Source of the DNA: Octopus vulgaris
Lineage: Eukaryota
NCBI GenBank assembly: GCA_951406725.2
Contig: OX597825.1
Span: 44,206,001-44,270,000, forward strand
Direction: 5' to 3'
DNA: 64,000 nt
In this document: one piece after another, positions 13,140 to 56,311 of the stretch
Layout of the letters: every line of letters starts with the position of its first letter
How positions within the stretch are numbered: position 1 is the stretch's first letter
Notes under the pieces: generated by a model
Databases searched by the model: none
Seen by the model: the letters and a program-made list of their open reading frames with translations, nothing else
Told to the model about the DNA's origin: nothing
Made by a program: the position numbers and the translations under genes

Positions 13140-13604
13140 CACTACGGTTATTTAATGTAAAGTCTTCCTCAAATCACTCTCGCTATTTACTCTCTTCCAA
13201 GAACATTTTCACTCACTCTTATCTCTTAGCTTGCCATACATTTTACTCATGTATCTATCAGCGTGATAGACAGAAACAAATAATACATCGCCATCGCCAT
13301 CGCATTCTATTGTCTACCTGTCAACACACACACAGTGAATTACTTTCATTTTATTCGTTGCACATTGTGTGTGTGCGTGTGGTGTAAACCACATTAAGAA
13401 AAGCATTTGACATACACACCAGAATGTGAGTTTTCTGTAAATTCTGCTTAATTGGAGTTTAAATTTGAAAAACTGAACCTGGCATGACCCGATGCATTCT
13501 ACTCTTAAAAATGCTAGGTAAATTGTAATTGAAGAAATCCTATATTGTAGATTTCTATAAGTGACAAAGGGAGGTAGATAAAATCTGCCTTTTATAATAA
13601 GAGA
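13140..13604 (-). mobile_element. Probable Helitron 5' portion abutting the satellite
   Basis: Minus strand starts A|TCtcttattataaaaggcag, a Helitron-type 5' terminus; no 3' hairpin/CTAG found. Confidence 0.35.
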
Positions 13605-16600
13605 TTAAGATTACCGTCATTAATGTCCAGGAGTTGATGACGATAATATATTAAGATTACCGTCGCTAATGTTTATGGGTTAATGACGAAAATATATTAA
13701 GATTACCGTCACTAATGTCTAGGATATGATGACGATAACATATTAAGATTACCGTCACTAATGTGTAGGTGTTGATGAGGATTATATTTTACGATTATCG
13801 TCACTAATGCCTAGGAGTTGATGACAATAATACATTAAAATTACCGTCACTAATGTCTAGTTGATGACGATAATATATTAAGATTAACGTCACTCTGTCT
13901 AGTAGTGGATGACGATAATATATTAAGATTACCGTCACTAATGTGTAGGAGTTGATGACGATAATATATTAAGATTACCGTCAATAATGTCTAGGAGTTG
14001 ATGATGATAATATATCAAGATTACCGTCACTAGTGTCAAGGGGTTGATTATGATTATATATTAAGATTACCGTCACTCTAAGGCTAGGAGTGGATGAAGA
14101 TAATATATATATAGATTACCGTCACTAATGTCTAGGGGTTGATGACGATAATATATTAAGATTATAATGTATTAAGTTTACCGTCACTAATGTACAGGAG
14201 ATCATAACGATAATATATTAAGATTACCGTCACTAATGTGTAGGAGTTGATGACGATTATATATTACGATTACCGTCACTAATGTCTCGGAGTTGATGAC
14301 GATAATATATCAAGATTACCGACACTAGTGTCTATTGGTTGATGATGATAATATATTAAGATTACCATCACAAATATCTAGAGGTTGATGACGATAATAT
14401 ATTAAGATTACAGTCATAAATGTCCAGGAGATGATGACGATAATATATTAAGATTACCGTCAGTAATATGTAGGAGTTGATGACGATAATATATTAAGAT
14501 TACGGTCACAAATGTCTAGGATTTGAAGACGATAATATATTAAGTTTACCCTCACTAAAGTCGAGTGGTTGAGGACGATAATATGTTAAGATTGACGTCT
14601 CTGATGTCAAGGAGTTGATGACGATCATATATTAAGATTACTGTCAGTAATGTCTAGGATTTTATGACGATAATATATTAAGATTACCGTCACTAATGTC
14701 TAGGAGTTGATGATGATAATATATGAAGATTACCATCACTAATGTCTAGAGGTTGATGACGATAATATATTAAGATTACCATCACTAATGTCTACGAGTT
14801 GATGACGATAATATATTGAGATTACCGTCACTAATGTCTAGGAGTTGAGGACGATAATATATTAAGATTATAATATATTAAGTTTACCGTCACTGATGTA
14901 CAGGAGATCATAACGATATTATATTAAGATTACCGTCACTAATGCGTAAGAGTTGATGACGATTATATATTACGATTATCGTCACGAATGTCTCGGAGTT
15001 GATGATAATATATCAAGATTACCGTCACTAGTGTCTATTGGTTGATGATGATAATATATTAAGATTACCATCACAAATATCTAGAGGTTGATGAAGATAA
15101 TATATTAAGATTACCGTCACTAATATCCAGGGGTTGATGACGATAATACGTTAAGATTACCGTCACTAAATTCCAGGATTTGATGACGATAATATATTAA
15201 GATTACCGACACTAATGTCTAAGAGTTGAGGACGATAATATATTAAGATTACCGTCATAAATGTCCAGGAGATGATGACGATAATATATTAAGATTACCA
15301 TCACTGATGTCTAGGGGTTGATGACGATAATGTATTAAGATTACCGTCAGTAATATGTAGGAGTTGATGACGATAATATATTAAGATTACGGTCACAAAT
15401 GTCTAGGATTTGAAGACGATAATATATTAAGCTTACCGTCGCTAATGTCTAGGGGTTAATGACGATAATATATTAAGATTACCGTCACAAATATCCAGGT
15501 ATTGATGACTGTAATATATTAAGATTACTATCACTAATGTCTAGGAGTTGATGACGATAATATATTAAGATTACCGTCACTAATGTCAAGGAGTTGATGA
15601 CGATCATATATTAAGATTACTGTCAGTAATGTCTAGGATTTTATGACGAAATTATATTAAGATTACCGTCACTAATGTCTAGGAGTTGATGATGATAATA
15701 TATGAAGATTACCTTCACCAATGTCTAGAGGTTGATGAAGATAATATATTAAGATTACCGTCACTAATGTCCAGGGGTTGATGACGATAATATATTAAGA
15801 TTACCATCACTAATGTCTACGAGTTGATGACGATAATATATTGAGATTACCGTCACTAATGTCTAGGAGTTGTTGACGATAATATATTAAGATTACGGTC
15901 ACTAATGTCTAGGATTTTAATGACGATAATTTAATAAGATTACCTTCACTAATGTCTAGGAGTTGATGACGATAATATTTTATGATTACCCTCAATAATG
16001 TCTAGGGGTTGATGACGATAATATATTAAGATTACCGTCACTTTAAGTCTAGGAGTGGATGACGATAATATGTTCAGATTACCGTCACTAATGTCTAGGG
16101 GTTGATGACGATAATATATCAAAATTACCGTCACTAATGTGTAGGAGTTGATGACGATTATATATTATGAATATCGTCACTAACGTCTAGTGGTTGATGA
16201 CGATAATATATTAATATTACCGTCACTAATGTCTAGGCATTGAAGAAGATAATATATTAAGATTACCGTCACTAATGTCTAGGGACTGTTGACGATAATA
16301 TATTAAGATTATCGTCATTAATGTGTAGGAGTTGATGATGATTATATATTACGATTATCGTCACTAAAGTCTAGGGGTTGATAAAGATAATATCTTAAGA
16401 TTACCGTCAGAAATGTGTAGGAGTTGTTGACGATAATATATTAATATTACCGTCACTAATGTTCATGGGTTGATGAAGATAATGTATTAATATTACCATC
16501 ACTAATGTCTAGGGATTGATGACGATAATATATTAAGATTTACGTCATTAATTTGTAAGATTTCATGACGATTACATATTACGATTATCGTCACTATTGT

Positions 16601-19600
16601 CTAGGTGTTGATGTCGATAATATTTTAAGATTACTGTCGCTAAGGTGCAGGAATTTATGACGATAATATATTAAGATTACTGTCACTCATGTCTCGGAGT
16701 TGATGACGATAATATATAAAGATTACTGTCACTAGTGCCTATTGGTTGATGATGATAATATATTAAGATTACCATCACTAATATCTAGAGGTTGATGAAG
16801 ATAATATCTGAAGATTACCGTCACAAACGTCTAGGGGTTGATGACGATAATATATTAAGATTACCGTCACTAATGTCGAGAGTTTCATGACGAAAATATA
16901 TTAAGATTACCGTCACTAAAGTCCAGGATTTGATGACGATAACATATTTAGATTACCGACACCAATGTCTAGGGGTTGATGACTATAATATATTAAGATT
17001 ACCATCACTAATGTCTAGGAGTTGATGACGATAATATATTAAGATTACTGTCAGAAATGTGTAGGAGTTGATGACGATAATATATTAATATTACGGTCAA
17101 TGATGTCGAGGGGTTGATGACGATAATAGATTAAGATTACCGTCAGTAATATGTAGGATTTGATGACGATAACATATTAAGATTACCGTCACTAATGTCT
17201 AGGTGTTGATGACGATAAAATTTTAAGACTACCGTCGCTAAGTTGTAGGAATTTATGACGATAATATATCAAGATTACCGTCAGTAGTGTCTAGGGGTTG
17301 ACGATGATAATATATGAAGATTACCGTCACTAACGTCTAGGGGTTGATGACGATAATATATTAAGATTACCGTCACTAATTTCGAGGGGTTGATGACGAT
17401 AATATATTAAGATTAGCGTCACTAATGTCTAGGGATTGATGACGATAATGTATTAAGATTACCGTCATTAAATTCCAGGATTTGATGAAAATAATATATT
17501 TAGATTACCGACACCAATGTCTAGGGGTTGATGACGATAATATATTAATATTTCCGTAACTAATGTCCATGGGTTGATGAAGATTATATATTAAGATTAC
17601 CATCACTAATGTCTAGGGATTGATGACGATAATATATTAAGATTAACGTCATTAATTTGCAGGAGTTGATGACGACTATATATTGCGATTATCGTCACTA
17701 ATGTCTAGGTGTTGATGACGATAATACTTTAAGATTACTGTTGCTAATGTGTAGGAATTTATGACGATAATCTATCAAAACTACCTTCACTAATGTCTCG
17801 GAGTTGAGGACGGTAATATATCAAGATTACCGTCAGTAGTGTCTATTGGTTGATGATGATAATATATTAAGATTACCATCACTAAAATCTAGAGATTGAT
17901 GAAGATAATATATGAAGATTACCGTCACTAACGTATAGGGCTTGATGACGATAGTATATTAAGATTACCGTCACTAATGTCCAGGAGAAGATGATGATAA
18001 TATATTCAGATTACCGTCACTGATGTCTAGGGGTTCATGACGATAATATATTAAGATTTCCGTCAGTAATATGTAGGAGTTGATGACGATAATATATTAA
18101 GATTACGGTCACTAATGTCTAGGATTTGAAGACGATAATATATTAAGATTACCGTCACTAAAGTCTAGAGGTTGATAACGATAATATATAAAGATTACCG
18201 TCACTAAAGTCTAGAGTTTGATAACGATAATATATTAAGATTACCGTCATTAATGTCCAGGAATTGATGACTATTATATATTATGAATACCATCACTAAT
18301 GTCTAGGAGTTGATCACGATAATATATTAAGATTACCGTCACTAATGTCCAGGAGATGATGACGATAATATATTAACATAACCGTCAGAAATGCGTAGGA
18401 GTTGATGACGATAATATATTAATATTACCGTCACTGATGTCGAGGGGTTGATGACGATATTATATTAAGATTACCGTCAGTAATATGTAGGAGTTGATGA
18501 CGATAATATATTAAGATTACCGTCACTAAAGTCTAGGGTTTGAGGACGATAATATATTAAGATTACACTCAATAATGTCCAGGCGTTGATGACTATAATA
18601 TATTAACTTTACCGTCACTTATGTCTAGTGGTTGATGACGATGATATATTAAGATTACCGTAAGTAATGTCTAGGGGTTTATGACGATAATATATTAAGA
18701 TTACCGTCACTAATGTCAAGGAGTTGATGACGACAATATATTAAGATTACCGTCACTAATATCAAGGATTTGATGAAGACAATATATTAAGATTACCGTC
18801 ACTAATGTCAAGGAGTTGATGACCATAATATATTAAGATTACCGTCACTAACGTCTAGCGGTTGATGACGATGATATATTAAGATTACCGTCACTAATGT
18901 CCAGGAGTTGATGACTATAATATATTAAGATTACCGTCACTAATGTCTAGGGGTTTATGACGATAATATATTAAGATTACCGTCACTAATGTCAAGGAGT
19001 TGATGACGACAATATATTAAGATTATCGTCACTAATGTCTAGGATTTGATGACGATAATATATTAAGCTTACCGTCACTAATGTCTAGGGGTTTATGACG
19101 ATAACATATTAAGATTACCGTCACTAATGTCAAGGAGTTGATGACGATAATATATTAAGATTACCGTCACTAATGTCAAGGAGTTGATGACGATAATATA
19201 TTAAGATTACCGTCACTAATGTGTAGGAGTTGATAACGTTAAGATATTAAGATTACCATCACTAAGATTTAGGAGTCGATGACGATAATATATTAAGATT
19301 ACCGTCAGTAATGTCTAGGAGTTGATGACGATAATATATTAAGATTACCGTTACTGAAGTCTAAGGGTTGATGACGATAATATATTAAGATTACGGTCAC
19401 TAATGTCTAGGATTTGAAGACGATAATATATTAAGATTACCGTCACTAAAGTCTAGGGGTTGTGGACGATAATATATTAAGATTACCGTCACTAATGTCT
19501 AGGGGTTTATGACGAAAATATATTAAGATTACCGTCACTAATGTCAAGGAGTTGATGACCATAATATATTCAGATTACCGTCACTAATGGCAAGGAGTTG

Positions 19601-22366
19601 ATGACGATAATATATTAAGATTACCGTCACTAATGTCAAGTAGTTGATAACGTTAAGATATTAAGATTACCATCACTAAGATTTAGGAGTTGAGGACGAT
19701 AATATATTAAGATTACCGTCAGTAATGTCTAGGAGTTGATGACGATAATATATTAAGATTACCGTCACTATAGCCAGGAGATGACGATAATATATTAAGA
19801 TTACCGTCAGAAATGTGTAGGAGTTGATGACGATAATATATTAAGATTACCGTTACTGAAGTCTAAGGGTTGATGACGATAATATATTAAGATTACGGTC
19901 ACTAATGTCTAGGATTTGAAGACGATAATATATGAAGATTACCGTCACTAAAGTCTAGGGGTTGAGGACGATAATATATTAAGATTACCGTCACTAATGT
20001 CCAGGGGTTGATGACGATGATATATTAAGATTACCGTCACTATTGTCCAGGAGTTGATGACTATAATATATTAAGATTACCGTCACTAATGTCTAGGTGT
20101 TTATGACGATGATATATTAAGATTACCGTAAGTAATGTCTAGGGGTTTATGACGATAATATATTGAGATTATCGTCACTAACGTCAAGGAGTTGATGACG
20201 ACAATATGTTAAGATTACCGTCACTAATGTCAAGTATCTGATGAAGACAATATATTAAGATTACCGTCACTAATGTCTAGGATTTGATAACGATAATATA
20301 TTAAGCTTACCGTCACTAACGTCAAGGAGTTGATGACGACAATATATTAAGATTACCGTCACTAATGTCAAGGATTTGATGAAGACAATATATTAAGATT
20401 ACCGTCACTAATGTCTAGGATTTGATAACGATAATATATTAAGCTTACCGTCACTAACGTCTAGGGGTTTATGACGATAATATATTAAGATTACCGTCAC
20501 TAATGTCAAGGAGTTGATGACCATAATATATTAAGATTACCGTCACTAACGTCTAGCGGTTGATGATGATGATATATTAAGATTACCGTCACTAATGTCC
20601 AGGAGTTGATGACTATAATATATTAAGATTACCGTCACTAATGTCTAGGTGTTTATGACGATGATATATTAAGATTACCGTAAGTAATGTCTAGGGGTTT
20701 ATGACGATAATATATTAAGATTACCGTCACTAATGTCAAGGAGTTGATGACGACAATATATTAAGATTACCGTCACTAATGTCTAGGATTTGATGACGAT
20801 AATATATTAAGCTTACCGTCACTAATGTCTAGGGGTTTATGACGATAATATATTAAGATTACCGTCACTAATGTCAAGGAGTTGATGACCATAATATATT
20901 AAGATTACCGTCACTAATGTCAAGTAGTTGATGACGATAATATATTAAGATTACCGTCACTAATGTGTAGGAGTTGATAACGTTAAGATATTAAGATAAC
21001 CATCACTAAGATTTGGGAGTCGATGACGATAATATATTAAGATTACCGTCAGTAATGTCTAGGAGTTGATGACGATAATATATTAATATTACCGTCACTA
21101 TAGCCAGGAGATGACGATAATATATTAAGATTACCGTCAGAAATGTGTAGGAGTTGATGACGATAATATATTAAGATTACCGTTACTGAAGTCTAAGGGT
21201 TGATGACGATAATATATTAAGATTACGGTCACTAATGTCTATGATTTGAAGACGATAATATATTAAGATTACCGTCACTAAAGTCTAGGGGTTGAGGACG
21301 ATAATATATTAAGATTACCGTCACTAATGTCCAGGGGTTGATGACGATGATATATTAAGATTACCGTCACTATTGTCCAGGAGTTGATGACTATAATATA
21401 TTAAGATTACCGTCACTAATGTCTAGGTGTTTATGACGATGATATATTAAGATTACCGTAAGTAATGTCTAGGGGTTTATGACGATAATATATTGAGATT
21501 ACCGTCACTAACGTCAAGGAGTTGATGACGACAATATATTAAGATTACCGTCACTAATGTCAAGGATTTGATGAATACAATATATTAAGATTACCGTCAC
21601 TAATATCTAGGATTTGATAACGATAATATATTAAGCTTACCGTCACTAATGTCTAGGCGTTTATGACGATAATATATTAAGATTACCGTCACTAATGTCA
21701 AGGAGTTGATGACCATAATATATTAAGATTACCGTCACTAATGTCTAGGTGTTTATGACGATAATATATTAAGCTTACCGTCACTAATGTCTAGGGGTTT
21801 ATGACGATAATATATTAAGATTACCGTCACTAATGTCAAGGAGTTGATGACCATAATATATTAAGATTACCGTCACTAATGTCAAGGAGTTGATGACGAT
21901 AATATATTTAGATTACCGTCACTAATGTGTAGGAGTTGATAACGTTAAGATATTAAGATTACCATCACTAAGATTTTGGAGTTGATGACGATAATATATT
22001 AAGATTACCGTCAGTAATGTCTAGGAGTTGATGACGATAATATATTAAGATTACCATCACTTACGTCTAGGAGTTGATGACGATCGCATATTAAGAAGAT
22101 TTATAGATATTGATCCCCGTCAATAATGTTAAGTGGTTGATGGCGATAATATATTAAGATTCCCGTCACTAATGTCTAAAGTTTTGATGACGATAATATA
22201 ATAAGTTTACCGTCACTAATATCTAGGTGTTGATGTTAATATATTAAGGTTACCGTCATTAATGTCTAGGAGTTGATGACGATAATATATTAAGTTTACT
22301 ATCACTAATGTCTAGGGGGTGATGACGATAATATATGAAGATCACCGTTATTAATATTACCGTCAT
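13605..22366. repeat. 46-bp minisatellite/satellite array, ~190 units, self-complementary unit
   Basis: Consensus attaccgtcactaatgtctaggagttgatgacgataatatattaag; attaccgtca pairs with tgacgataat; higher-order block repeats present. Confidence 0.97.
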
Positions 22367-22369
22367 TCG

Positions 22370-24600
22370 ATATTTTTTAAAGTCACATTATATTCTCCGT
22401 TATTACTCACTGTAGAACCTTATCGTAGCCCAATTGTTTTACTATAACATGAATTCCCTTCATATACTTTATTTTAATATTTCCTTTATGATAACTGAAG
22501 CACTTTCTATATATAGAGTTATTATGCAAACAACGTCTCTCTATACTTTTTCAGTATGCGTTTGTATATATGAACTTATACCGGTTTTTTTTCTTATTTA
22601 CTCCTATGTTTTTGCACATATGCGTATGCTTTTATGTGTGCTATGTGCGTACATATGTATGTTTACCTGTACATGCATACATTTGAGTATATACACCCAA
22701 TATGTGTGTATATATACGTATATTTATATGCTGATGTATATGGGTGTTGTGTGCACATTCATATGGATATGTGTAAGATACACCATCTTCTGCATGTGTT
22801 TTTTGTATAACTATGTATTTGTAAATGAGTATACATATACATTTCTACTTGTATGTATACCCTTATATGCCTATGTATATGCATTCTCATTTTCTCTCCC
22901 CACCCCTACCAACATAGCTACTCCACTAAATACTTGTATTTGCTATTAGTTATTCCATCTTATATACTTCCATTAAGTATATTTTCAATACTTGTTTATA
23001 TACAGTTATAGTGTGGTTGTGCATGTTTACATCTATATCTGCATATCTATGTATACCTCTATGTGTATCTATGTTTGCATATATTTGTCTTTTTGTGTAT
23101 ATGTATGTTTATATGTGTGTAAGTACGTGTATATGTATGTGTATGTAAGTGCATATATATATGTCTGTGTATATATATGTATATGTATTCGTATGTATGT
23201 GTATATGTATATGCGTGTTTATTTACATATGCATGTGTGTATTTGTACTTGTATATACATGTGTAATGGATATGTATATATTTGTGTATATATATGTGTA
23301 TGGATATGTATATATTTGTGTATATATATGCTTATATGTGTATGTATGCCTATATTTACATATTTGATTGCTTATACATTCACCCTGATCCATATGATAA
23401 GCATTTTATCCTATAATTTTGTAACTTTATATATATCCCTACATGTATCTATCTACATGTAGATCATAATGATAATTATTTTTAATATATTTACATGCAT
23501 TGAACCCATATAACGTGTATTTTTATTCACCACGATCATATATAGCCATACCATATCACACAATACTCAGCAATAATAATACTCTCGTCATAACTTTTTA
23601 TATATATAAAATATTCCTTTTGTATAACATTATCCTACACATTCAATACATTTATCTTTATCTTTTTTCTATTTTTAACATTCACTTCTCGCATTATATC
23701 CCAAACTTGATCATTATTATTAGTTTTTATTCTTATTTATCTCCCCTACGCTAATAAAATTTTGTTTCATTTTCACCCTCTCTAATTTATTACCTTATCG
23801 CTTCTATATTTCTCTTCTTACTACATCTAATATGTTCTCTTATCTCTATTCTTAACAATGACTTCGTAAGTATTTACAACCTTAATCATCATATTTCCAT
23901 TTGAATTACTACTTTTCCTCATCTCCTTTATTATACTTCCATGTTACCTTAATATGAATCTTGAGTAAACAAGAGTCCTTAATCCACTTCCACTTCATTC
24001 TTTTTAATTCTTCCCCCTCCCCCATATTTTCACAAATAACATCATTAACTTTCTTGTTTTACAAACAATTTTTTTACGCTAAACTTTTATCTGTTTATGC
24101 TTATTTATAAATAAATACCAAGTATTGTTTTTAACGGTTAGATTTAATTTACATTTGGTAATGTTTTCTCATTGGACATTTCTCTTACTTACTCACCATA
24201 TGCTGCACATATGGATATTTAGTTAGCAAATCTATACTAATCTATAGAGAGAGTGTTATCGGTATCTCTATATTTATATCATCATCTAACCGTTCATCTG
24301 TCAGTAGTGGTTTAATATTTGACATCGCACACATATAGGAACAGATAAACAGGAAACTCATAGATCCAACTTCTCTGTTCTTTTTTTTAAAGTTACTATT
24401 ATCATTTTCTCTCTGCACTGATGAGTACTATGATAATTTTCAAATTCATATATTAATTAATATCTATGTACGAAACAATTGTATGCATGAATAAACTTCT
24501 TACAATTTTTAACATCTTATCTCCTCCATTTTTGGCAAATGTGATTGGATTTGTAGAACTTCATTCCATAAATTAATCATATACTTAATATTCTAATACA
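22370..24600 (+). mobile_element. Long low-complexity segment ending in an HHR, probable PLE 3' UTR/pLTR
   Basis: Decayed (TA/TG)n then T/C-rich strand-biased DNA leading to the HHR at 24412-24490; architecture resembles 51370-52741. Confidence 0.45.
24412..24490 (+). ncRNA. Type I hammerhead ribozyme, canonical core
   Basis: tgca-CTGATGA-gtac...gtac-GAA-ACAATTGT-A-tgca; palindromic stem III, GUA site. Confidence 0.85.
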
Positions 24601-41491: not shown

Positions 41492-44261
41492 TGATTTTGA
41501 TTTTGATTTTGATTTTTCCAGTTTCAGCTTATGAGCTGTGGCCATGCTGGGGCACCGCCATTTGGTGTTGCTACTTGGTTTCACTTCATGAAGGTTTCTA
41601 GCAACTGCTATTTGGTGCATGAGAGAGTTCGATGCAGCTGCCCTCATCTGCCCCTCCTGCCGTCAAGTTGGTTCATCTGGGACACCTGACAGGAAGAGAT
41701 CCAGCTTCATTTTAAAGACATCTGTATCCACCCCATGCAGGTCTCTCAGGTTCTTCGGGAGGATATTGAAGAGCTGTGGGCCTCGGAAGCCCAGGCTATC
41801 ACATAATCTTGTCCTACATCTTGATGGCAAGTTTGGAGTCCTAGGCACCACGCAGTGGCGCCCAGTTCTGGCATTTGCGTAACTCTCGATGCCAAAGTTC
41901 AGGACACTTCCCTCCAGGATCTTCCAGATGTATATTATGGCATATCTTTCCCGCCTACGCTCCAGGGAATATAATTTTAATTTCCTGAGCCTTTCCCAGT
42001 AGTTTACATTCTGCATAGAGGCTATCTTCTTCGTGTAGCTACGTTGGCTCGCCTCGAGCTCTGTGATCAACTTGACACTGGATGGTGACCATAACTGAGA
42101 GCAATAGTCAAAGTGGCTTAGGACAAGTGTCCTCCAGAGGACCATCATGGTTTCTTGTTCTCTTGTTCTAAAGGTTCTAAGGATCCATCCGGCCAGTCGT
42201 CTACATTTCAGTGCCAATTTAGCAACATGTACACGAAAGGTCGCGTCATCACTCATGTAAATACCTAGGTCACGCACTGATTGTGCCTCTGGGATTGCTA
42301 TTCCTCCGGGTCCAGTGTATTCATTGGGTATTGCATTTAGTTTTGCATGCTGATAGTATAGAGCTTGAAACTTTTCAGCATTGAACTGCATGCTATTCTT
42401 TTCGGCCCACTTGTATATTTTGTCTAGCTCACATTGCAGGTGTTTAGTGTCCTCAGGGTTCTGTATTGCCTGTGAAACTTTTGTATCATCTGCATAACTT
42501 GTGATCGTGGCTCTCTGCGTGGCTGAGGGCATGTCTGAGAGGGCCATTATGAACAGTAGTGGTCCCAGAACAGTGCCCTGCGGAACACCGCTCACTATTT
42601 GCGTGTTAATGGAAGTGGCCCCATTGGCCACTACCACCTGACTTCTATCTTTCAGAAAGTCATGAAGCCATTCTCCCAGTTTTCCAACTATGTTGAGATC
42701 ACGCAGTTTGTGACATATCATTCCATGATCGACTTTATCAAAGGCCTTTGCAAAGTCGAGATATATCACTTCCACATTTGAGTGGTTGAGCAGCCGTTTT
42801 AGCACCCAGTCATAGTGTTGTAGGAGCTGAGTTAAACAGCTTCTCCCTGGTCGGAAACCATGTTGGGTGTCGGGCAGCAAGTCATTTTCTTCAAGGAAGG
42901 TGATCAGCTTCCTTCTGACTATTCGTTCCATGACCTTGCTGATGTGTGAGGTCAGAGAGATAGGTCTATAGTTCTTGGCTTCCGCTCTGCTACCTCCTTT
43001 ATGAATGGGGCATATTTTACCTTCATTCAGTTTTCTTGGAAGTTTGCCAGCTGCAAGGAAGCTCTGAAAGAGTAACTGCAGTGGTCTTGCTAGGACTCTC
43101 TTACATGCTTTTAGGAGGATTGCCGGGAATCCATCGGGGCCAGTAGCTGAGTCTGTTTTCATTTCATCTATAGCCTTGATTACATCGTCTTCCTTTATAT
43201 CGATGTAATCTATCGTCGCCGCCTCTGATTTTATATCTGCAGTGGTAAAAAAGTCAGTTGGATTGGTGATTTGGAGATGCCCAAGAAGTGGAGTGAAAAC
43301 ACTCTTGAATTGCTCATTCAGTATCTCACTTACCCTCATTGGTTTTCCTGTAAGTGTGCCGTCCTCTTCGAGGAGTGGCCCTATTCTACAGTGCACCGTA
43401 GCTGTTTCTTTGGCATACCTGTAGAAAGCTCTGGAGTTAGATTTTATGTTGTCTATAGCCCAGGCTTCTTTGTCTGCTCTTTCCTTTTCATGGGAGAGTT
43501 TCAGACATTTTTCGATTTCCAACAGTTTTATTTTTAGGCGGGACTTTTCACTGCTTTCAATCTGTTTGTTTAGGCGATTTGAAAATTTTGGACGCCGTCT
43601 CATTAGAATTTTCCTCTCTCTGGGGATTTTGTTCGTGTGTACAGTGGCCTTTCTCTCTGGGACATATTTGTAGCATATGGCTTGCATTACAGACATGAAT
43701 TGTTGAAGTTTCACGTCGATGTCTGGCGAGGAGAGACATTTAGGCCAGTTTTGTTTGAGGATCTCTTTCTCAATTTGTTTCCAGTTTGCCTTATGGTAGT
43801 TCAAGCTGGAAAGATTCTGGGGGTTTCTTGTAGGCTGCATGTCCGTGCTCTCTTTTGGCCCGTACATGGTCAGCTCTATCATGTTGTGATCCGAGAGTAG
43901 TGTCGGTGTCACTTTCACATTATGGATGAGATCCATGTCATTTGTGAAGCAGAGATCCAGTGTGTTACCTGCCCTGGTTGGTTGGAGTATTACCTGCTCC
44001 ATGTACAGGGTGTTGATGAGGTTCAGGAGGGACCTCGCCTGTCCTCGTTCACATCTTGTCATTCCTGAGAGAGAAAGGCCCTCGGGCCATCTGACATTTG
44101 GCAGATTGAAGTCTCCCATAAGAAGTACACTTATGTGTTGTTCTAATGTGGTTAGAACTTCTTCTATTTTTATAAGGCAGTCTTCAAACTTGCCCACATG
44201 GCTTGGGGCATCTGGAGGGCGATATGTAGCACACACAACTACATCAAGTTGCCTAATATGT

Positions 44262-44299: not shown

Positions 44300-44731
44300 T
44301 ATAATAATAATAATAATGACAATAATAATATTAGGGAGTAAATCCAAACTTACAGGGTAAAAATTAGATTTAGAATTAAATCTAATTTTACAGTATAAAT
44401 ATATATATTAAATTAGAGATAAAACGACTATTAGGCAAATCAAACAGTGAAAAACATAAACCAAAACATAGAAATAAAATTAGTTAATATAATATACAAA
44501 AAATATATAATTTGAAGTTAAAATTTAAAAAAAAATTTTAATTATTAATTTATACTTATAAATTTATATATATGGATATATAATTCGTAAATAAGAGCAA
44601 TCGAAAAAATTTCTAATGCCAAATAAGCCGAAAAATTGGACATATTGTCCATTAACCATATAATTTTTTCACAATACGCACGCTACTCAGAAAAAGGTCG
44701 ACAGAAATTTCTAAAAAAATTCCATTATTAC

Positions 44732-44788
44732 CATATCGGACCGATTTCAGGATTAGCTTATAACAGCCCTCCCTTCTTCAGTGATACA
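44732..44788 (-). ncRNA. Type I hammerhead ribozyme (left-arm copy)
   Basis: Reverse complement of 45364-45420 with few substitutions. Confidence 0.8.
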
Positions 44789-45363
44789 TGTGGCAAAAGA
44801 AATAAATGAGAAACTTACTCATACCCATGGAAGAAGCAAACACTAAGTCATGAGTACAATTAAGTACCCCAAATACATCCAAAATAGAAATACTCCAGCC
44901 TATTCGAGACACGTGCGATTTGAACTGAGGCTCTCACAGAGTGAAAGAGTCCGGAAGTGAACGCTTAAATTTATATCAAATGTAGGATAAAATATTTTTC
45001 GAAAAAAATCCTTTTAGAAAAAAATTTTATCAATGGCCAGCATATTAAAAAATACCTTTAAAGGTTAAATTTATAAACAATTGCCCTTATTTACGAATTG
45101 TTTATAAATTTAACCTTTAAAGGTATTTTTTAATATGCTGGCCATTGATAAAATTTTTTTCTAAAAGGATTTTTTTCGAAAAATATTTTATCCTACATTT
45201 GATATAAATTTAAGCGTTCACTTCCGGACTCTTTCACTCTGTGAGAGCCTCAGTTCAAATCGCACGTGTCTCGAATGGGCTGGAGTATTTCTATTTTGGA
45301 TGTATTTGGGGTACTTAATTGTGCTCATGACTTAGAAGTTTCTCATTTATTTCTTTTGCCACA

Positions 45364-45420
45364 TGTATCACTGAAGAAGGGAAGGCTGTTATAAGCTAAC
45401 CCTGAAATCGGTCCGATATG
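45364..45420 (+). ncRNA. Type I hammerhead ribozyme, canonical core
   Basis: tgtatca-CTGAAGA-aggg...ccct-GAA-ATCGGT-C-cgatatg; GUC site. Confidence 0.85.
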
Positions 45421-45714
45421 GTAATAATGGAATCTTTTAGAAATTTCTGTCGACCTTTTTTTTTAGTAGCGTGCGTATTGTGAAACAATTATATGGTTAA
45501 TGGACAATATGTCCAATTTTTCGGCATATTTGGCATTAGAAATTTTTTCGATTGCCCTTATTTACGAATTGTTTATAAATTTAACCTTTAATGGTATTTT
45601 TTAAAATTTTTTCGAAAATAATTTTTTCGAAAAATATTTTATCCTACATTTGGTATATATATATATATATTTGGTATATATATATATTTATTATTTTTAT
45701 TTTTATTATTATTT

Positions 45715-45780: not shown

Positions 45781-45885
45781 ATTATTTCATATTTTTATTT
45801 TTATTTTTTTATTTTTTTATATTTTTTTTTTTAATATATAACTATCAAAAAGTATTAAAAAGTTTAATATAAGATAAAAAGTAAA

Positions 45886-45983
45886 ACCACTACGATCGTT
45901 TCATGCCCATAACCTAATTCGAATAACAATAATTTAAATTCAATTAATAATTTGAATTATGGTTATAGTCCATCTTCAGGTTA
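45886..45983 (-). ncRNA. Type I hammerhead ribozyme with long stem II
   Basis: Minus strand: aac-CTGAAGA-tggactataacc...ggttatgggcat-GAA-ACGATCGT-A-gtggtt. Confidence 0.8.
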
Positions 45984-47165
45984 ATGATAATATTTAAATA
46001 AATAATCAAATATATTTAAACAATTTTTTAAAAATAAATAAATAAATAATAATTTTTCTTATAAGAAACTCTATTATCAAAGTAGAAACTTTAACGATTA
46101 TGATTATGTCATAACAATCGATTATAATGTTAAATATTAATTTTTAAGTAATAATTTTTAAGGTAAGAATAGATAGAAAATGTATTTATTCAGATATAAT
46201 ATGGTTTTAAAAAAACATAATAAACCCACAAATAATCAAATTTCAGTTATAGTCAATATCTAATTACCTAAATATTTAACAAAAAACACTATTCATATTA
46301 TTAAATTTAATTTCAAGTCAAATAATTATATAATACTTGAATAATAACTGAATTATCAATGAATATATATAAATGTATACAAACATAAGAATTAAAATCT
46401 AAAATTATCTCTATCAATAAATATATATGCACGTATAATAAATTAATTATTCATTATTACTTATAAATATATTAAAAAATTGAAGATGAAAAAGCTAATT
46501 GTAAACAAACAAACTATCTTAAAAGAACGCTATAACTAATTAACGATCCATATATCTCGTTGGCTAAATAATAACTTACAAAAACCGTATAGTTAAGAAT
46601 TAAAAGGAAATAAAAAATACTTAATGAAATAATCAATCCGTAGTTATATAGTGAAATAATCAATCCGTAGTTATATAGTATCCAATATATGCTACGAATA
46701 TATCTATCAATGGAAAAAATGCTATTACTAATTATCCACTGAAGAAATCAATATATATGTTATAATAGCAATTATAAAATATTTAAAATAGCTCTCAACA
46801 AATATAGTTATTAAAGACTAAAATTTATGCTATCAATACATGTCTATACATGAAACCTAACTTTAAAAAACTCGTATAACTGTTAACGATCTATATATCT
46901 CTTTGGCTAAGTAAAGTCTTACGAATAAACGTAGAGTTAAAATCTAATAATTATATAAAAAAAACTATGATAACCAAATCATTACATAACAATCAGTATT
47001 TATATAAATACAAAATTATACAATAATACATATTAAAATATTTAAATTTTAAAAATTTAAAAATCTTAAATATAAATATATACTTAGCTTTGCAAGGTTT
47101 AACTAATTTATAACAGAAATATAACAAAATATAAACTTAACTCTAGTATAAGATAAGTATATATA

Positions 47166-47578
47166 CAGGAGCGGCTGTGTGGTAAGTAGCTTGTTTACCA
47201 ACCACATGGTTCCGGATTCAGTCCTACTGCGTGGCACCTTGGGCAAGTGTCTTCTACTATAGCCTCGGGTCGACCAAATCCTTGTGAGTGGATTTGGAAG
47301 ACGGAAACTGAAAGAAGCCCGTCGTATATATGTATATATATATATATATGCGTGTGTGTGTTTGTGTGCCTGTGTTTGTCCCCCTAGCATTGCTTCACAA
47401 CCGATGCTGGTGTGTTTATGTCCCCGTTACTTAGCAGTTCGGCAAAAGAGACCGATAGAATAAGTACTAGGCTTACAAAAGAATAAGTCCCGGGGTCGAT
47501 TTGCTCGATTAAAGGCGGTGCACCAGCATGGCCGCGGTCAAATGACTGAAAGAAGTAAAAGAGTAAAAGAGAGTAAGA
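47166..47578 (+). mobile_element. SINE family B, near full length
   Basis: caggagcggctgtgtggtaag...gcaccttgggcaagtg...ggcggtgcaccagcatggccgcggtcaaatgactgaa and (gtaaaaga)n tail. Confidence 0.92.
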
Positions 47579-48275
47579 GTATATATATATATTATATATC
47601 ATATTATTAATATTCAAAATAAATACTAATCAATTGATTATTTCATTAAGAAATTTTTTATTTCAATTTAATTCTTAACTATACGGTTTTTGTAAGTTAT
47701 TAATTAGCCAACGAGATATATGGATCGTTAATTAGTTATAGTGTTCTTTTAAGATAGTTTGTTTGTTTACAATTAGCTTTTTCATCTTCAATTTTTTAAT
47801 ATATTTATAAGTAATAATGAATAATTAATTTATTATACGTGCATATATATTTATTGATAGAGATAATTTTAGATCTTAATTCTTATGTTTGTATACATTT
47901 ATATATATTCATTGATAATTCAGTTATTATTCAATTATTATATAATTATTTGACTTGAAATTAAATTTAATAATATGAATAGTGTTTTTTTTTGTTAAAT
48001 ATTTAGGTAATTAGATATTGACTATAACTGAGATTTGATTATTTGTGGGTTAATTATGTTTTTTTAAAGCCATATTATATCTGAATAAATACATTTTCTA
48101 TCTATTCTTACCTTAAAAATTAATATTTAACACTATAATCGATTGTATGACATAATCATAATCGTTAAAGTTTCCAGTTTGATAATAGAGTTTCTTATAA
48201 GAAAAATTATTATTTACTTATTTCTTTAAAACATGTTGTTTAAATATATTTGATTATTTATTTAAATATTATCAT

Positions 48276-48374
48276 TAACCTGAAGATTGACTATAACCAT
48301 AATTTGAATTATTAATTGAATTTAAATTATTGTTATTCGAATTAGGTTATGGGCATGAAACGATCGTAGTGGTT
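48276..48374 (+). ncRNA. Type I hammerhead ribozyme (right-arm copy)
   Basis: CTGAAGA at 48280-48286; GAAACGATCGTA at 48357-48368. Confidence 0.8.
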
Positions 48375-48418
48375 TTACTTTTTATCTTATATTAAACTTT
48401 TTAATACTTTTGATAGTT

Positions 48419-48720
48419 ATAGCCTGTACTTCAGAGGCCCACAACTCTTCAGTATCCTCCCGAAGAACCTGAGGGACCTGCATGGGGTGGATGCGGAGGT
48501 CTTTAAAGTAGGACTGGATCTCTTCCTGTCAGGTGTCCAGGATGAACCAACTTCACGGCAGGAGGTGCAGATGAGGGCAGCTGCATCAAACTCTCTCATG
48601 CACCAAATGGCAGTTGCTAAAAAGCATTCGTGAGGTAAAATCATGTAGCAACACCAAATGGTGGTGCCCCAGCATGGCCACAGCTCAAGAGCTGAAACTG
48701 GAAAACATAAACCAACATAA
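48419..48720 (+). mobile_element. CR1-group LINE 3' fragment (same family as 41492-44265)
   Basis: SLYFRGPQLFSILPKNLRDLHGVD...QDEPTSRQEVQMRAAASNSL; same tail ggtgccccagcatggccacagctc..gctgaaactgg. Confidence 0.92.
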
Positions 48721-48803: not shown

Positions 48804-49067
48804 TTATAAGTTAATAATAAAAAATTTTTTTTTTAAATTTTAACTTTAAATTTAAATAATTTAAATTTTGAATTTTATATTTTATATATTTTTTGTATAT
48901 TATATTAATTAATTTTATTTCTATGTTTTGGTTTATGTTTTTCACTGTTTGATTTGCCTAATAGTGGTTTTATCTCTAATTTTATATATATATATATATT
49001 TATCTACATGTCTGCCTGGCTGGCTGTCTGTCTGTTTGGCTGTATATATAAATATATATATATATAT

Positions 49068-49368
49068 AGTTATCGCCAAGCTAACATGACAGTCCAAGAA
49101 AATAGGACGAATGCTGCTCTTCATTAGCTACAAGAGGCCATCACCTCTAGCTAGCTATGTGACACACGAACCTGTGTCCATTATAACCTTCGAACAGGGG
49201 AGGTCAACAGCTTCCCCTTGATGGTTTGGCACCTACAGACTAGTTTCGGGGTAGTTGCCCCTTATCAATGTAGAGTAGCCAAACCCAGCAGGTGTCGCTG
49301 TTAGCTTGGTGATAACAATTAATATCCATTACCGCTGCTGCAGTCTCCTTTAGAGAGATTTAGAAATA

Positions 49369-49375
<7 letters not shown>
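49068..49375 (-). mobile_element. HHR element family 1, second locus
   Basis: Homologous to 4682-5427; short inversion gttatcgccaagctaaca / tgttagcttggtgataac; (TA)n flanks. Confidence 0.8.
49233..49273 (-). ncRNA. Minimal hammerhead ribozyme, intact, U3-A8 core
   Basis: Minus strand: ctaca-TTGATAA-gggg caacta cccc-GAA-ACTAGT-C-tgtag; all helices perfect, GUC site. Confidence 0.88.
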
Positions 49376-49404
<29 letters not shown>

Positions 49405-52003: not shown

Positions 52004-52149
52004 CGTGTGTGTGTCTCTGTGTGTTTGGAGAAGGGGAGAGAGACAAAAAGAGAAAAGGGAAAATAAAAATAAAAATAAAAATAAGGGAGGAAGAGGAGAA
52101 GAAAAAAAATTTTGTGTGTTGATATTTATACCGCTACATATATATACAC

Positions 52150-52730
52150 AGACTTATACATGAAATATTTGAAAGAAAACTTTTTATCGGTTCAAAATGA
52201 ACAACCAAATTACACCATCTTGAAAATAGTATATCATAGGAAAGTTAAAATTAAAGTGACAATTAAAAAGTAAAGATGGAAGTAAATTATAAAAATAATA
52301 ATATAATGTATATAACAGGCAATATATATATATACACATACACACACATATACATATATACACATTCAGACATATACTAAATGTTCTACTATATTAGATT
52401 GTAAATCGAAAGATGCGTCCTTCAATGTCACTATATATATATATATATATACATACATGCTTACACATGAAATATTAGAAAAAAACCCACCTTCTATCGA
52501 ATCAAAATGAACAATCAAATTACACCATCTTGAAAATTGCATATCATAGGAAGGTTAAAATTAGAATGACAATTGGCAAGTAAAGATCAAGTAAATTACA
52601 AAAACAATATAATGTATATAACAGGTAACATATATATATACACACACCTATATATATATATATACACACACATATTAAATGTTCTACTATTTTATATTGT
52701 AAATCGAAAGATTTGTCCTTCAATGTATGT
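52150..52730. repeat. Diverged ~305-bp direct repeat in the PLE 3' UTR
   Basis: caaattacaccatcttgaaaat...atgttctactat...gtaaatcgaaagat...ccttcaatgt present twice (52160-52428 and 52468-52726). Confidence 0.85.
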
Positions 52731-52741
52731 TGAGTAAAGTT

Positions 52742-53923
52742 TCAGCCATTTAATTTGGGGGAGAACTTAGCTATGAAATATTTTTCCATATTCCTCCTGA
52801 AAGAGGTGTCGTTCTTCGGACACTTGTAGAAGGGAAAGATCTTAAATTTTCCTTCTCCACATGTAGCTACATGTGTACTTAGTGGTATTTTGCGTAGTTC
52901 TTCCTGCCGAATATGTCGGTGAATCCTGGCTCGCTGGCACAAAGAATTACCAGTTTCACCTACGTAATTCTCCTTGCACGTGGGGCAGGTTATGCAGTAT
53001 ATGACGTTCTGCGTCTTGCAGTTCATATCTGCATTTACTTTGAATATGTCACCATTTTTAAATCTCATCTCTCTGTTACCCTCTCTGTATTTGTAGGTGG
53101 GGTTGCTGCAGATCCCACATCTACCATCTCCGCACTCTTTTGCAAAGAATTCCGTTTTAGTTTCTGAAGAGAATTTCCCTCTTGTTAGGTGTTTCTTTAG
53201 GTTTTTGTCCTGTCGTCTACTGTTTTTTATGCTATATTTGTTTAATATGTTTTTCATTTTGGGGCTTTGTAAGGCTATTGGTAGGTTTGAATGTATGGTT
53301 TGGAAGATGTTGGTAACTCCAGGGTTGTGTGTGTTTATAAAAGGGATAGTGTTTTCTTTGTTTTTTGTTTTGGGTGTCCTGAGTTGTGCGATGTCTAGTT
53401 TTAATGCTCTTGTGATTCCATTTTCTATTAGTTTAAGGGGGTATTTTTGCTCTAGGAGGAAGTTTTTGAGTTCATCTAGTCTTATAAGTCGTATTTGTGA
53501 ATCAGTTACTATGCTACATATTCGTCGTGCCATACTATATGGGATGTTTCTTTTTGTGTGGGATGGGTGGCAGGAGTGGAAATTTAAGTATTGATGTGTG
53601 TCAGTTTTTTTGTAGTGGATGTCTGTTTTGACGATGGAGTTGTGTATTTTGATGTTGATGTCTAGGAAGGGACGTTCGTTGTGGCTGATATCTATTGTGA
53701 AGTTGATTGATGGGTGCAGCGTATTGAGGATGTTGTGGAATGTTTGTAGGTCCTCTTCTGATCTGTTCCAAAAGATGAAGCAGTCATCGAGGTAGCGTTT
53801 CCACTTTTTCTTGATGTCTTCTCTGAAGTCGTGTTCGAAGACTTTCCCTATTTCATCATATAGTTTGTTCTCCAGGAAACCCATCACCAGGTTGGCATAT
53901 GAAGGTGCGAATTTTGTACCCAT
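52742..53923 (-). CDS. PLE RT C-terminal half, Zn-knuckle and GIY-YIG endonuclease
   Basis: MGTKFAPSYANL, WKRYLDDCF, FLDI, HPSHTKRNIPYS, CGDGRCGIC, NVIYCITCPTCKENYVGET, FSPKLN. Frameshifted upstream pieces (DKGGAIV, GLPKIHK, MRPIVAG) extend to 54640. Confidence 0.9.
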   Translation of the reverse strand: MGTKFAPSYANLVMGFLENKLYDEIGKVFEHDFREDIKKKWKRYLDDCFIFWNRSEEDLQTFHNILNTLHPSINFTIDISHNERPFLDINIKIHNSIVKTDIHYKKTDTHQYLNFHSCHPSHTKRNIPYSMARRICSIVTDSQIRLIRLDELKNFLLEQKYPLKLIENGITRALKLDIAQLRTPKTKNKENTIPFINTHNPGVTNIFQTIHSNLPIALQSPKMKNILNKYSIKNSRRQDKNLKKHLTRGKFSSETKTEFFAKECGDGRCGICSNPTYKYREGNREMRFKNGDIFKVNADMNCKTQNVIYCITCPTCKENYVGETGNSLCQRARIHRHIRQEELRKIPLSTHVATCGEGKFKIFPFYKCPKNDTSFRRNMEKYFIAKFSPKLNG

Positions 53924-54640
53924 AGCTGTGCCTTTTATCTGTCGGTATGTCTTGTTGTTGAATGAGAATGTGTTTTCTTCGAGTATTAGTTGGTGGCTTG
54001 GGTGATAAAGTTTGTCTTGAAGCGTTCGTCTATAAGTTCTCTGTATTTTTCTATTGATTGTTTTATAGCTTCTAGACCTAGGGTGTGTGGTATGTTTGTG
54101 TATAGATTTGTGACATCAAAGCTTGCATTATGGTGTTTTTCGGGACTGTATTTGGAATGTGTGTGAGGAAGTCTATGTCATCCCTTATGTAGCTTGGTAT
54201 CTGTGGGCATAAAGGTTTGAGGAGTATATCTATGAAGTGGCTTAGTTGTTGTGTTGGTGCCTGGGGTCCTGCCACTATTGGTCTCATTGTGAGGTCTGCA
54301 GGCCTTTGTACTCTTATATAGTGGTTCCTTTATGGCTCTCTGTATTTCAGAGCTTTTATGAATTTTAGGTAATCCAAAGAAGTTGCTTTCTTTGGTTCGT
54401 GAGTTGCATAGATAGTCTTTCTCCTTATCTGTAAAGGAGTCCTGATATTCATTGACCAAAGTTCTAATTTTTTTTATTGTTGTTTTCTCCGGTGGTGTTG
54501 GTTCCTCTTTATAGTATGTCTGGTTGTTCAGTAACTCCAGTATCTTTTCTTTGTAGTAATCTGTGTCCATAATTACTATTGCTCCACCTTTGTCAACTTC
54601 TTTTATAATGATTGATTTGTCATTTTTCAGTTTTTGTAGG

Positions 54641-55246
54641 GCTAACACTGGACATCCTAAAAGGACACACACATGGAACAATATACAAATGGATAGAAAT
54701 CAACACATAACCTACAACAAACATCGAGGAAATCGAAACCACACAAACACCAACCACATGCAACCCCACAAATTTACAAGATGGATAAAAACAACTCCCA
54801 CTATCAATACAATACAAACACAATACATGAACCATCCACCTACCCACAAAGAAACCTAAACCCCAGTAATAGATATTGGCTCAACAAACACAGAAGATGG
54901 GAAGAAAACAACTACCAAAGACAAAACAACACATACAGACCACACAGACCACCCCAACTACAAGAAAACCTAAGAACTGAAAATGGAATTTGGAGACGTA
55001 ACAACACAACCCATTTTTTAGGGAGAGGATACTTCAACCATACTCCAGACCCAATACACCAAAAATTCCGGATGAACTCACAAAACACATAGACCCCAAA
55101 ATAATAAACTTATCTAAAAGAGAACTTGACGAAAATGAAATGAACCTACTACTAAAAGGCCTCAAATTTACACCTACACCCACTCCAAACCTCATAGAAC
55201 TAAAAACTGATATAGACAACTTCAGCCACTACCTCCGCTTTATGGA
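54641..55246 (+). pseudogene. Inverted N-terminal segment of the same PLE ORF
   Basis: IINLSKRELDENEMNLLLKGLKFTPTPTPNLIELKTDIDNFSHYLRFME is the conserved PLE N-terminal motif, on the opposite strand. Confidence 0.85.
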
Positions 55247-56250
55247 AATAATACAGCATAAAATAATTTACTGCAGTAGGTTTTGCCGATTTGAGAACGT
55301 ATTAATTTAAAATTAAAACTAAAATGAGGGTGAAAAAATCAGATATTTATTTGATAATATCAATTTAACACCAGTGGTCTAGCATATTAAAAAACTGAGG
55401 TTCAGTAAATAGTGTTACATACATATAAGAGGGATTATCACAATGTGGACACCCTAATGCTAGAAGTAGATCCGCTATGGTCTTACCACTAAGAATTGTC
55501 CTCTAGAAAATTTAGCAAACACCAGAAACGTAAGCGAGCAAGACAAATGAAAAGTAACAAAAATATAGATTAATCATAAATATAGATTAATCATGAATCA
55601 TAAAATATAGATTAATCATCCCACTTATATGTATGTAATACTATTTACTGAACCTCAGTTTTTTAATATGCTAGACCACTGGTGTTAAATTGATGTTATC
55701 AAATTAATATCCGACTTTTTCACCCTCATTTTAGTTTTAATTTTAAATTAATACGTCTCAAACCGGCAAAAGCTACTGCAGTAAATTATTTTATGCAGTA
55801 TTATTTCTGGTAATTTAGCGCGCCCCAAAGCGAGGACCTTTGAAAAATAACTACAAGTGTAATAGGTAGAACTACATACATATTCGACCTCGTGTGGATG
55901 TCTGGTGTGTAGTTCTGCAAATTATATTTGTATGGACGATCATACTGAAGACCTACAGATACATTGCTTAAGTAAAATTACGTAATTTGTTAATAGTGAA
56001 ACATTGTTTATGATTAATCTATATTTTTGTTTGTTCGCTTACGTTTCTGGTGTTTTATAAATTTTCTAGAGATCAATTCTTAGTGGTAAGACCATAGCGG
56101 ATCTACTTCTAGCATTAGGGTGTCCACATAGTAGTAATCCCTCTTACATGTATGTAATACTATTTACTGAACCTCAGTTTTTTAATATGCTAGACCACTG
56201 GTGTTAAATTGATGTTAATTTTTCACCCTCATTTACATTTTAATTTTGAC
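55245..56250. mobile_element. Fold-back plus 1.2-mer HHR element, family 7
   Basis: Unit ~55629-56147 (~519 bp) with its start repeated at 56148-56250; inverted arm 55245-55578; HHR at 55938-56015. Confidence 0.88.
55938..56015 (+). ncRNA. Type I hammerhead ribozyme, canonical core
   Basis: gatcata-CTGAAGA-ccta...tagt-GAA-ACATTGT-T-tatgatt; 7-bp stem I, GUU site, predicted cleavage after 56008. Confidence 0.82.

Positions 56251-56311
<61 letters not shown>

Follow-up and report, generated by a model that had tools for sequence, protein, structure and literature searches.

A head-to-head hammerhead repeat whose inverted arm ends, with short re-copies of its end, at the predicted ribozyme cut

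Main finding

In the 64,000-nucleotide stretch of DNA analysed here (the window), which is AT-rich, microsatellite-rich and eukaryotic, with repeats reminiscent of an octopus genome, the inverted arm of a 519-nt hammerhead repeat ends at the cut predicted for its ribozyme, is followed by three short re-copies of that end, and then meets a longer sense copy of the same unit. The locus is a real and tidy junction of a new hammerhead-repeat family in a known architecture, likely made from one cut template. This one junction is most economically read as run-off of a reverse transcriptase (RT) at the self-cleaved 5' end of the RNA with re-copying afterwards. We regard the arm end at 55578 as one suggestive fossil, by which a general rule is left unsupported and in vivo activity is not proven. 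The matter at stake is whether the RNA that goes into the genome has in fact been cut by the hammerheads of Penelope-type elements: in the sole in vitro study cleavage was dispensable, and for R2 the same question has been answered by genomic junctions.

A type I hammerhead motif and its predicted cut

A descriptor scan placed a type I hammerhead motif on the forward strand at 55930-56024, with the predicted cut between 56008 and 56009; positions are numbered from this cut, +1 being 56009, the first nucleotide after it. The scan thereby re-found the motif and the cut after 56008 of the original prediction, and none of 30 shuffled windows (0/30) contained a hammerhead match with a helix I of at least 7 bp. 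The type I elements CUGANGA, GAAA and an NUH triplet lie around three helices, open at helix I, and the core consists of CUGAAGA (55945-51) and GAAAC (55998-56002) with the loop AUU and the triplet GUU, cleavage being predicted after 56008. Helix I has 7 bp, then a 2-nt/1-nt internal loop and then 7 bp more, while helix III is one pair with a 3-nt loop inside a near-palindrome (not a perfect one), much like the very short palindromic helix III by which hammerheads of the Penelope-like element (PLE) type can fold as dimers. With Rfam, no match in the whole window reached gathering score, and in 55600-56300 hammerhead families were absent at E<=10, the sole matches there being chance microRNA ones. 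A long hairpin lies just 5' of the hammerhead (55851-55933), and there, too, Rfam gave chance microRNA matches alone. Pattern-scan matches at two metagenome loci and one viral locus were judged to be chance, since their flanks share no similarity.

The motif of the 519-nt unit is without the G10.1-C11.1 pair closing helix II, a trait of PLE hammerheads, in which this pair is described as conserved and cleavage in vitro as poor (PMC4209133). The first helix II pair is C.U in the 55930-56024 copy and U.U in about 90% of the aligned contig depth of the family, and an axolotl hammerhead with U.U at the base of helix II is reported to cleave, better as a dimer (PMC7229834). By computation, the active fold of the monomer lies about 4.8 kcal/mol above the MFE, and ACAUUGU can pair with a second copy (6/7 pairs, -2.3 kcal/mol). 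Self-cleavage of the hammerhead would be plausible, more probably in dimeric form.

A multicopy, circularly closed, non-coding unit

The non-coding hammerhead unit has a repeat period of 519 nt and a GC content of 32%. As the original prediction had it, a sense 1.2-mer follows the junction on the forward strand: it begins at 55620 (+131), is 630 nt long and stops near 56250, and it is made of one full unit (55620-56138) and a partial second one from +131 to about +240 with a 16-nt deletion, which forms its 3' end (56139-56252). It abuts a (TA)n microsatellite (56253-56307) that is likely the right-hand target. There is one complete hammerhead in this sense 1.2-mer, to be set against the two or more consecutive complete ones by which Li 2026 recognises an active copy. 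No stop-to-stop reading frame of 60 aa or more lies inside the unit, and for the RNA, itself predicted only, the circular fold of the unit has -112 kcal/mol (z = -2.1 against 40 shuffles).

BLAST found no second copy of the unit elsewhere in the window. Contigs from 4 of 24 listed sequencing runs were aligned to 55757-56252, and 855, 276, 1101 and 1143 contigs, mostly 90-95% alike, matched this segment in the four runs. No single contig among those listed covers the whole unit, and contigs in 4/4 runs close the 519-nt circle by joints that lead from 56208-56247 back to 55757/8. Because contigs of all four runs continue from the end of the aligned segment into its start, we call the unit multicopy and circularly closed, and it is, judging by its sequence, a non-coding hammerhead repeat that resembles an animal retrozyme in its working. 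Two segments, 56063-56130 and 56182-56215, have an aligned depth about tenfold higher, and a more abundant sister family has the same segments; lying downstream of the cut, they are a candidate protein-binding or initiation signal. Single-protein queries found no related loci and the alignment query found none in viral contigs; in genome contigs the alignment query returned 29 loci, from which the hammerhead families of G001 and G002 were taken. G001, G002 and G003 (L005-L032), filed as bacterial bins, include a large amount of DNA that looks eukaryotic and carries Penelope-like elements together with minimal hammerheads by the dozen.

The inverted arm and its re-copied end

The inverted arm (55245-55578, minus strand) runs from +318 to +1 of the unit, to which it is about 95% alike (mismatches at 11/209 and 9/188 aligned bases, and one 15-nt indel). 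Its start is possibly 55244, to which the family majority letter C at 55808 would lengthen the match, and its end is ambiguous within 55577-55580; BLAST carries the arm to 55580, which is -1, and this first end thus lies between -1 and +2. The original prediction had the arm end at 55578, at the cut, and both BLAST and alignment bear out the coordinates. Three re-copies follow on the same strand, namely 17 exact nucleotides from +18 to +2 (55578-55594), a short piece of 7 nt made of one unmatched G plus +7 to +2 (55595-55601), and 18 exact nucleotides from +19 to +2 (55602-55619), the last two bases of which (AT) fit the sense copy too. A terminal 16-mer had been said to be repeated twice over 55579-55619; the two long re-copies are indeed there, but a third, short one exists as well and the lengths are 17, 7 and 18 nt. 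The terminal 17-mer is found at 55561, 55578 and 55603 and in the sense copy, plus one place elsewhere in the window with 2 mismatches. All three re-copies stop at +2 or no more than 3 nt away. Of the four ends, two can be placed firmly, both at +2 (the next base being G and C, respectively), and the other two may lie anywhere from +2 to -1 because 55578-80 reads AAA.

The short C run before the sense part, formerly described as a separate element, turned out to be templated, as the first letters of the sense copy: TAATCCCTC is what the unit has both in the arm and in the second copy, and an untemplated addition was rejected on this ground. Two antisense copies of the unit RNA thus meet head to head at the junction, with a 2-nt AT overlap at the joint between the third re-copy and the sense copy. 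The segment from +131 to +209 is present three times with star-like differences (1, 1 and 2 private changes in 79 nt), and because the copies differ in this fashion a single shared template is compatible with them. It is very improbable that two neighbouring copies were rearranged afterwards into this junction or that it was produced by misassembly, even though it is contained in no contig among those listed, a target-site duplication was not found and the left neighbour is truncated, since the arms are about 5% apart with separate 15- and 16-nt indels, unlike a read-level fold-back, and since the head-to-head layout is typical of these elements as described in PMC8557442 and has four cases in the window.

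The repeated stops at one base suggest a physical template end. The restarts of the re-copies (+18, +7/8 and +19) sit at unpaired edges of the two helix I segments and suggest that the helix zipped up again and that priming was renewed on RNA; a U-run at +16 to +20 alone accounts for 2/3 of the restarts with no structure needed. As strong evidence the restart positions were rejected, their nominal p of 0.007-0.07 being post hoc and confounded by the U-run, and the stutter copies were likewise rejected as independent evidence, as the re-copies are not separate events.

A Penelope-like element on the left

The left neighbour is a decayed Penelope-like ORF on the minus strand (52742-54648) with several frameshifts, which contains RT, a CX4CXXC linker and GIY-YIG and matches residues 169-802 of P0001. 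Between it and the arm lies, on the plus strand, an inverted 5' piece of a Penelope-like ORF (54649-55247) that matches P0001 residues 58-110, about 58 residues being missing between the two ORF pieces. The inverted piece ends in a Glu codon that shares GAA with the start of the arm, or its terminal GGAA given the family majority letter. GIY-YIG scores above the cut-off and RVT_1 just below it, and the published definition of EN+ PLEs places a CX2-5CXXC linker between RT and the GIY-YIG found at the C terminus (PMC8557442); with its RT, linker and C-terminal GIY-YIG, the neighbour would be an EN+ PLE of the Neptune/Nematis type, as assigned by domain order.

Two copies of a 3' repeat of the PLE, each of about 310 nt, lie at 52120-52745 on the minus strand and agree at 234/269 aligned bases (87%). 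They have no BLAST match to the 519-nt unit, and the possibility that the unit is the pLTR of this PLE was rejected because the two are unrelated. The PLE 3' repeats are, on sequence grounds, older than the copies of the 519-nt unit. Our reading is that the PLE was inserted first and then served the unit as its left target, although the opposite order, or a single concerted event, is also conceivable. No target-site duplication was seen at the insertion, which is flanked by the PLE fragment and (TA)n.

Proposed twin priming with run-off at a cut end

We rate at somewhat better than an even chance the whole account in which twin priming took place, one of the cDNAs ran off an RNA that the ribozyme had cut, and the free end of this cDNA was copied again while the joint was made. 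A non-autonomous hammerhead repeat would have been inserted by a Penelope-type RT/endonuclease with both target strands as primers. The first cDNA would have taken its primer from the (TA)n side, begun at about +240 and run through the hammerhead junction (in an uncut dimer or in a closed or nicked circle) to +131, while the second would have been primed from the older Penelope fragment via the 4-nt GGAA match at +318 and extended to the RNA 5' end generated by the hammerhead. The free 3' end of the second cDNA would then have slipped back, re-copying the terminal 17, 7 and 18 nt, before joining the first via the 2-nt AT overlap. The template may have been a dimer in which only the first hammerhead had cut, or a circle nicked but kept together by helix I, so that one RT crosses and the other runs off. 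Purified Poseidon protein has been reported to cut and extend both target strands and to initiate internally, and in the same in vitro work cleavage was dispensable and unprocessed RNA was the main substrate, with zero RNA-seq reads beginning or ending at the cut (PMC11167929).

The original prediction had the RT switch strand after re-priming. The sense copy contains +319 to +519, with the whole hammerhead, and because this part is missing from the arm, a fold-back on the arm cannot have made the sense copy, which we take for this reason to be a separate cDNA of a twin-priming event, primed from the (TA)n side. A single RT that reached the cut end, re-primed, turned, copied its own cDNA into the sense part and made further jumps would, with an arm of only +1 to +318 and a sense copy of 630 nt, still require at least one extra switch to an antisense template, and we consider this path improbable. 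What speaks for it is that the turn has the 2-nt AT overlap and, close by, a match of TAATC with GATTA; the same is true of a true fold-back elsewhere in the window (45082-45096, with a 13-nt loop and central arms 99% alike) and the R2 snap-back junctions described in PMC11331408.

Twin priming with run-off has likenesses to L1 twin priming and alternative end joining as described in PMC11702581 and PMC2895639, in which the second cDNA is primed by 2-4 nt of microhomology (secondary priming of L1 by short microhomology, PMC11702581), and the two cDNA ends are joined by a short overlap with repeated templated filler. The locus differs from L1 in its lack of poly(A) and of a target-site duplication and in a cDNA overlap of 188 nt as against the 1-10 bp duplications reported for L1 inversions (PMC11702581); because the overlap so far exceeds these, two RNAs or strand displacement would be needed.

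The stutter marks a free end at about +2 without naming the polymerase, because RT re-priming and end-joining both fit, and we hold an RT acting on RNA and a host end-joining polymerase acting on DNA to be about equally probable. The earlier picture of an RT that reaches the self-cleaved end and re-primes on it therefore stands as to run-off and re-copying, but not as to the role of the RT, as end-joining gives like insertions. Penelope RT is the sister group of telomerase RT. A more specific scenario, which we think unlikely, is that Penelope RT carried out telomerase-like repeat addition in the germ line at a ribozyme-cut template boundary, where helix I closed again and pushed the new cDNA end aside, and the RT took up new positions at the unpaired helix edges (+8 and +17 to +19) and copied the segment three times. 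If so, both ends of the template for the repeats would be set by the ribozyme, and hammerhead cleavage would be readable from the genome at junctions of this kind. Should +1/+2 ends with stutters recur in the 519-nt family, this would demonstrate the use of cut RNA, and the family would offer a substrate for testing repeat addition by a telomerase-related RT.

The cut site among other ends

A cut template is favoured by the position of all four ends, which lie in the range from -1 to +2 around a cut that structure alone had predicted. Were the RNA uncut, structure should have stopped the copying at the 3' edge of helix I (+7 or +16, where the pairs have p about 0.7) or inside or upstream of the motif, the region in which outside copies cluster, and not at +1. 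Against it stand the single locus and the AAA at 55578-80, which also fits -1 to +1 of an RNA left uncut if it matched 3 nt of the U-run at +16 to +20. One end falls by chance in a 4-5 nt window of the 519-nt unit with a probability of 0.8-1.0%, and at least one such end among the eight inner ends of the window has a probability of 6-7%. The head-to-head layout recurs four times in the window, and 1/8 inner ends lies at the cut and 7/8 far off: the other pairs have inner ends at -322 to -361 (44569-45663, period 471), at -735 and -746 or beyond (45837-48421), and at -62 and -139 (4700-5425), relative to cuts that in these three families were assigned by motif, some of the cores being decayed.

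In the contigs of the 519-nt family, none of the 15 joints listed (of 28) and none of the 24 loose ends listed (of 483) fell at 56007-56011, and no pile-up of ends was reported. Two skips start at 56004 and 56005, the letters of the latter continuing through the cut, and of the three strand changes listed (55843/56147, 55944/56062 and 56058/56161) 0/3 are at the cut. The contig evidence on ends is weak because contigs lose rare forms.

The outside test used PLE-bearing eukaryotic DNA within prokaryotic bins, that is, other hammerhead families of another organism. The G002 sample comprised two families with 31 fetched loci out of 46 + 78 matches, one duplicate and the matches not reaching past +5 being left out, and candidate scoring covered 40/88 and 40/97 candidates. 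One of 46 5' ends fell at -2 to +3, with 1.1 expected if ends were uniform over 250 nt, whereas 27/46 lay at -60 to -15 and 10/46 at +5 to +30 (37/46 together), and 0/28 inner ends (14 pairs) were at the cut; some of these ends are alignment ends of diverged subfamilies, and some loci are possibly duplicates. The one exact case is a 51-nt solo copy, 98% alike, that starts at +1 of its family's predicted cut (L090:1501-1551, G002:C4:78334-78384). Counted per query, 0/9, 0/10, 1/46, 0/78, 0/7 and 0/5 of the matches began no more than 2 nt from the predicted cut, most of the 78 belonging to another repeat upstream. The enrichment of arm ends at the NUH site that was foreseen for other copies was thus negative in every sample (window, family contigs and G002), none of them a full census of the 519-nt family, and cut RNA templates appear to be the exception rather than the rule.

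The junction had been put forward as sequence-level evidence that the ribozyme was active in vivo, which is more than n = 1 with re-copies that are not independent can carry; such activity would here be no novelty, because self-processing of animal hammerhead repeats has already been published, with self-cleavage and linear and circular monomers shown in vivo in other species (PMC7229834). On the assumption that cut RNA gives rise to about 2% of ends and that 1-3% of the others land in the same few bases by chance, we estimate that an end at the cut site was made by cleavage with a likelihood between equal to and twice that of chance. The main competitor keeps twin priming and lets the second cDNA stall or be trimmed near the motif of an uncut RNA by coincidence, the stutter then being slippage between the AAA (-1 to +1) and an A-run 17 nt off plus one end-joining duplication. 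Indeed, 55595-55619 can also be parsed as one DNA-templated duplication of 55571-55594, of 24-25 nt and with two changes (a period of 25), templated iterative insertions of the pol theta type are known from host end-joining (PMC2895639), the P for one such end among the eight of the window is about 0.06-0.07, ends gather around hammerheads anyway (37/46 in G002), and Poseidon in vitro chiefly uses unprocessed RNA (PMC11167929). Such a coincidence, however, requires repeated stops at +2 without a block there, its 24-25-nt parse costs two changes versus one for the three-piece parse, and the 0/28 outside inner ends imply that the cut base is no general stall site. We consider it possible but doubtful, and place run-off from a cut RNA above it because of the estimate just given, raised slightly by the repeated stops.

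Relation to known elements

The unit shares with the animal (non-LTR) retrozymes described in PMC7229834 and 10.64898/2026.07.22.740005 a unit that is short, AT-rich and free of coding sequence and has a single type I hammerhead in each period, an insertion of more than unit length and coexistence with Penelope-like elements, their proposed mobilisers. Its 519 nt exceed the 150-450 bp of PMC7229834 and lie within the 51-972 bp of 10.64898/2026.07.22.740005. In contrast to retrozymes, the locus has one complete hammerhead and is known here from sequence alone, and a head-to-head arm with stutter is not among the features described in the parts of those two sources on which we draw.

With EN+ PLE insertions (PMC8557442; PMC11167929) the locus shares a partial tandem with an adjoining inverted truncated copy, a microsatellite target, no clear target duplication, a hammerhead in the repeat and internal 3' ends; for PLEs, a 5'-truncated partner in inverted position and a microsatellite as target are the usual picture (PMC8557442). 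It differs from those accounts in that the unit has no ORF and that its arm is truncated at the predicted cut, in elements whose hammerhead function has been termed unclear (PMC8557442; PMC11167929). As in R2 (PMC3774820), a ribozyme cut would fix the 5' end and be readable from genomic junctions, in some of which short pieces occur two or three times over (Fig. 5 legend), whereas R2 as described there has an HDV-like ribozyme, many junctions that back the rule, repeated pieces that are 28S-like and no head-to-head arm. In searches of the main texts of open-access papers, we found no description of a PLE or retrozyme arm that ends at a hammerhead cut with re-copied ends, a point on which Fig. 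S2 of PMC11167929, a map of genomic copy ends, may bear.

Other repeats of the window

The pair at 44569-45663 is a near-perfect palindrome of an unrelated 471-nt hammerhead unit with a 13-nt loop (45083-45095), an uncut hammerhead in both arms and a TA-rich end, and from its sequence it looks like a cDNA snap-back via a 3-bp ATT/AAT match. At 45837-48421, 805-bp inverted arms (95%) of another hammerhead repeat, both with 3' ends about 52 nt beyond the predicted cut, enclose a SINE-like insert, and an exact 27-nt tandem duplication (46625-46679) is present where the start of the right arm maps. An outer inverted repeat (44394-44529 and 48860-48998, 93%) surrounds two hammerhead insertions, and the nested cluster sits inside a LINE-like fragment (41500-44260 and 48420-48700). 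A short hammerhead repeat with a decayed core forms an antisense, sense, antisense cluster at 4700-5425 with a tail-to-tail palindrome and has a solo copy at 49104-49400. An intact-looking hammerhead with palindromic helices (TGCA, GTAC and an AATT loop) and no inverted partner lies at the end of a T-rich stretch (24408-24495), and an 8.7-kb satellite at 13597-22359 consists of about 190 copies of a 46-nt unit.
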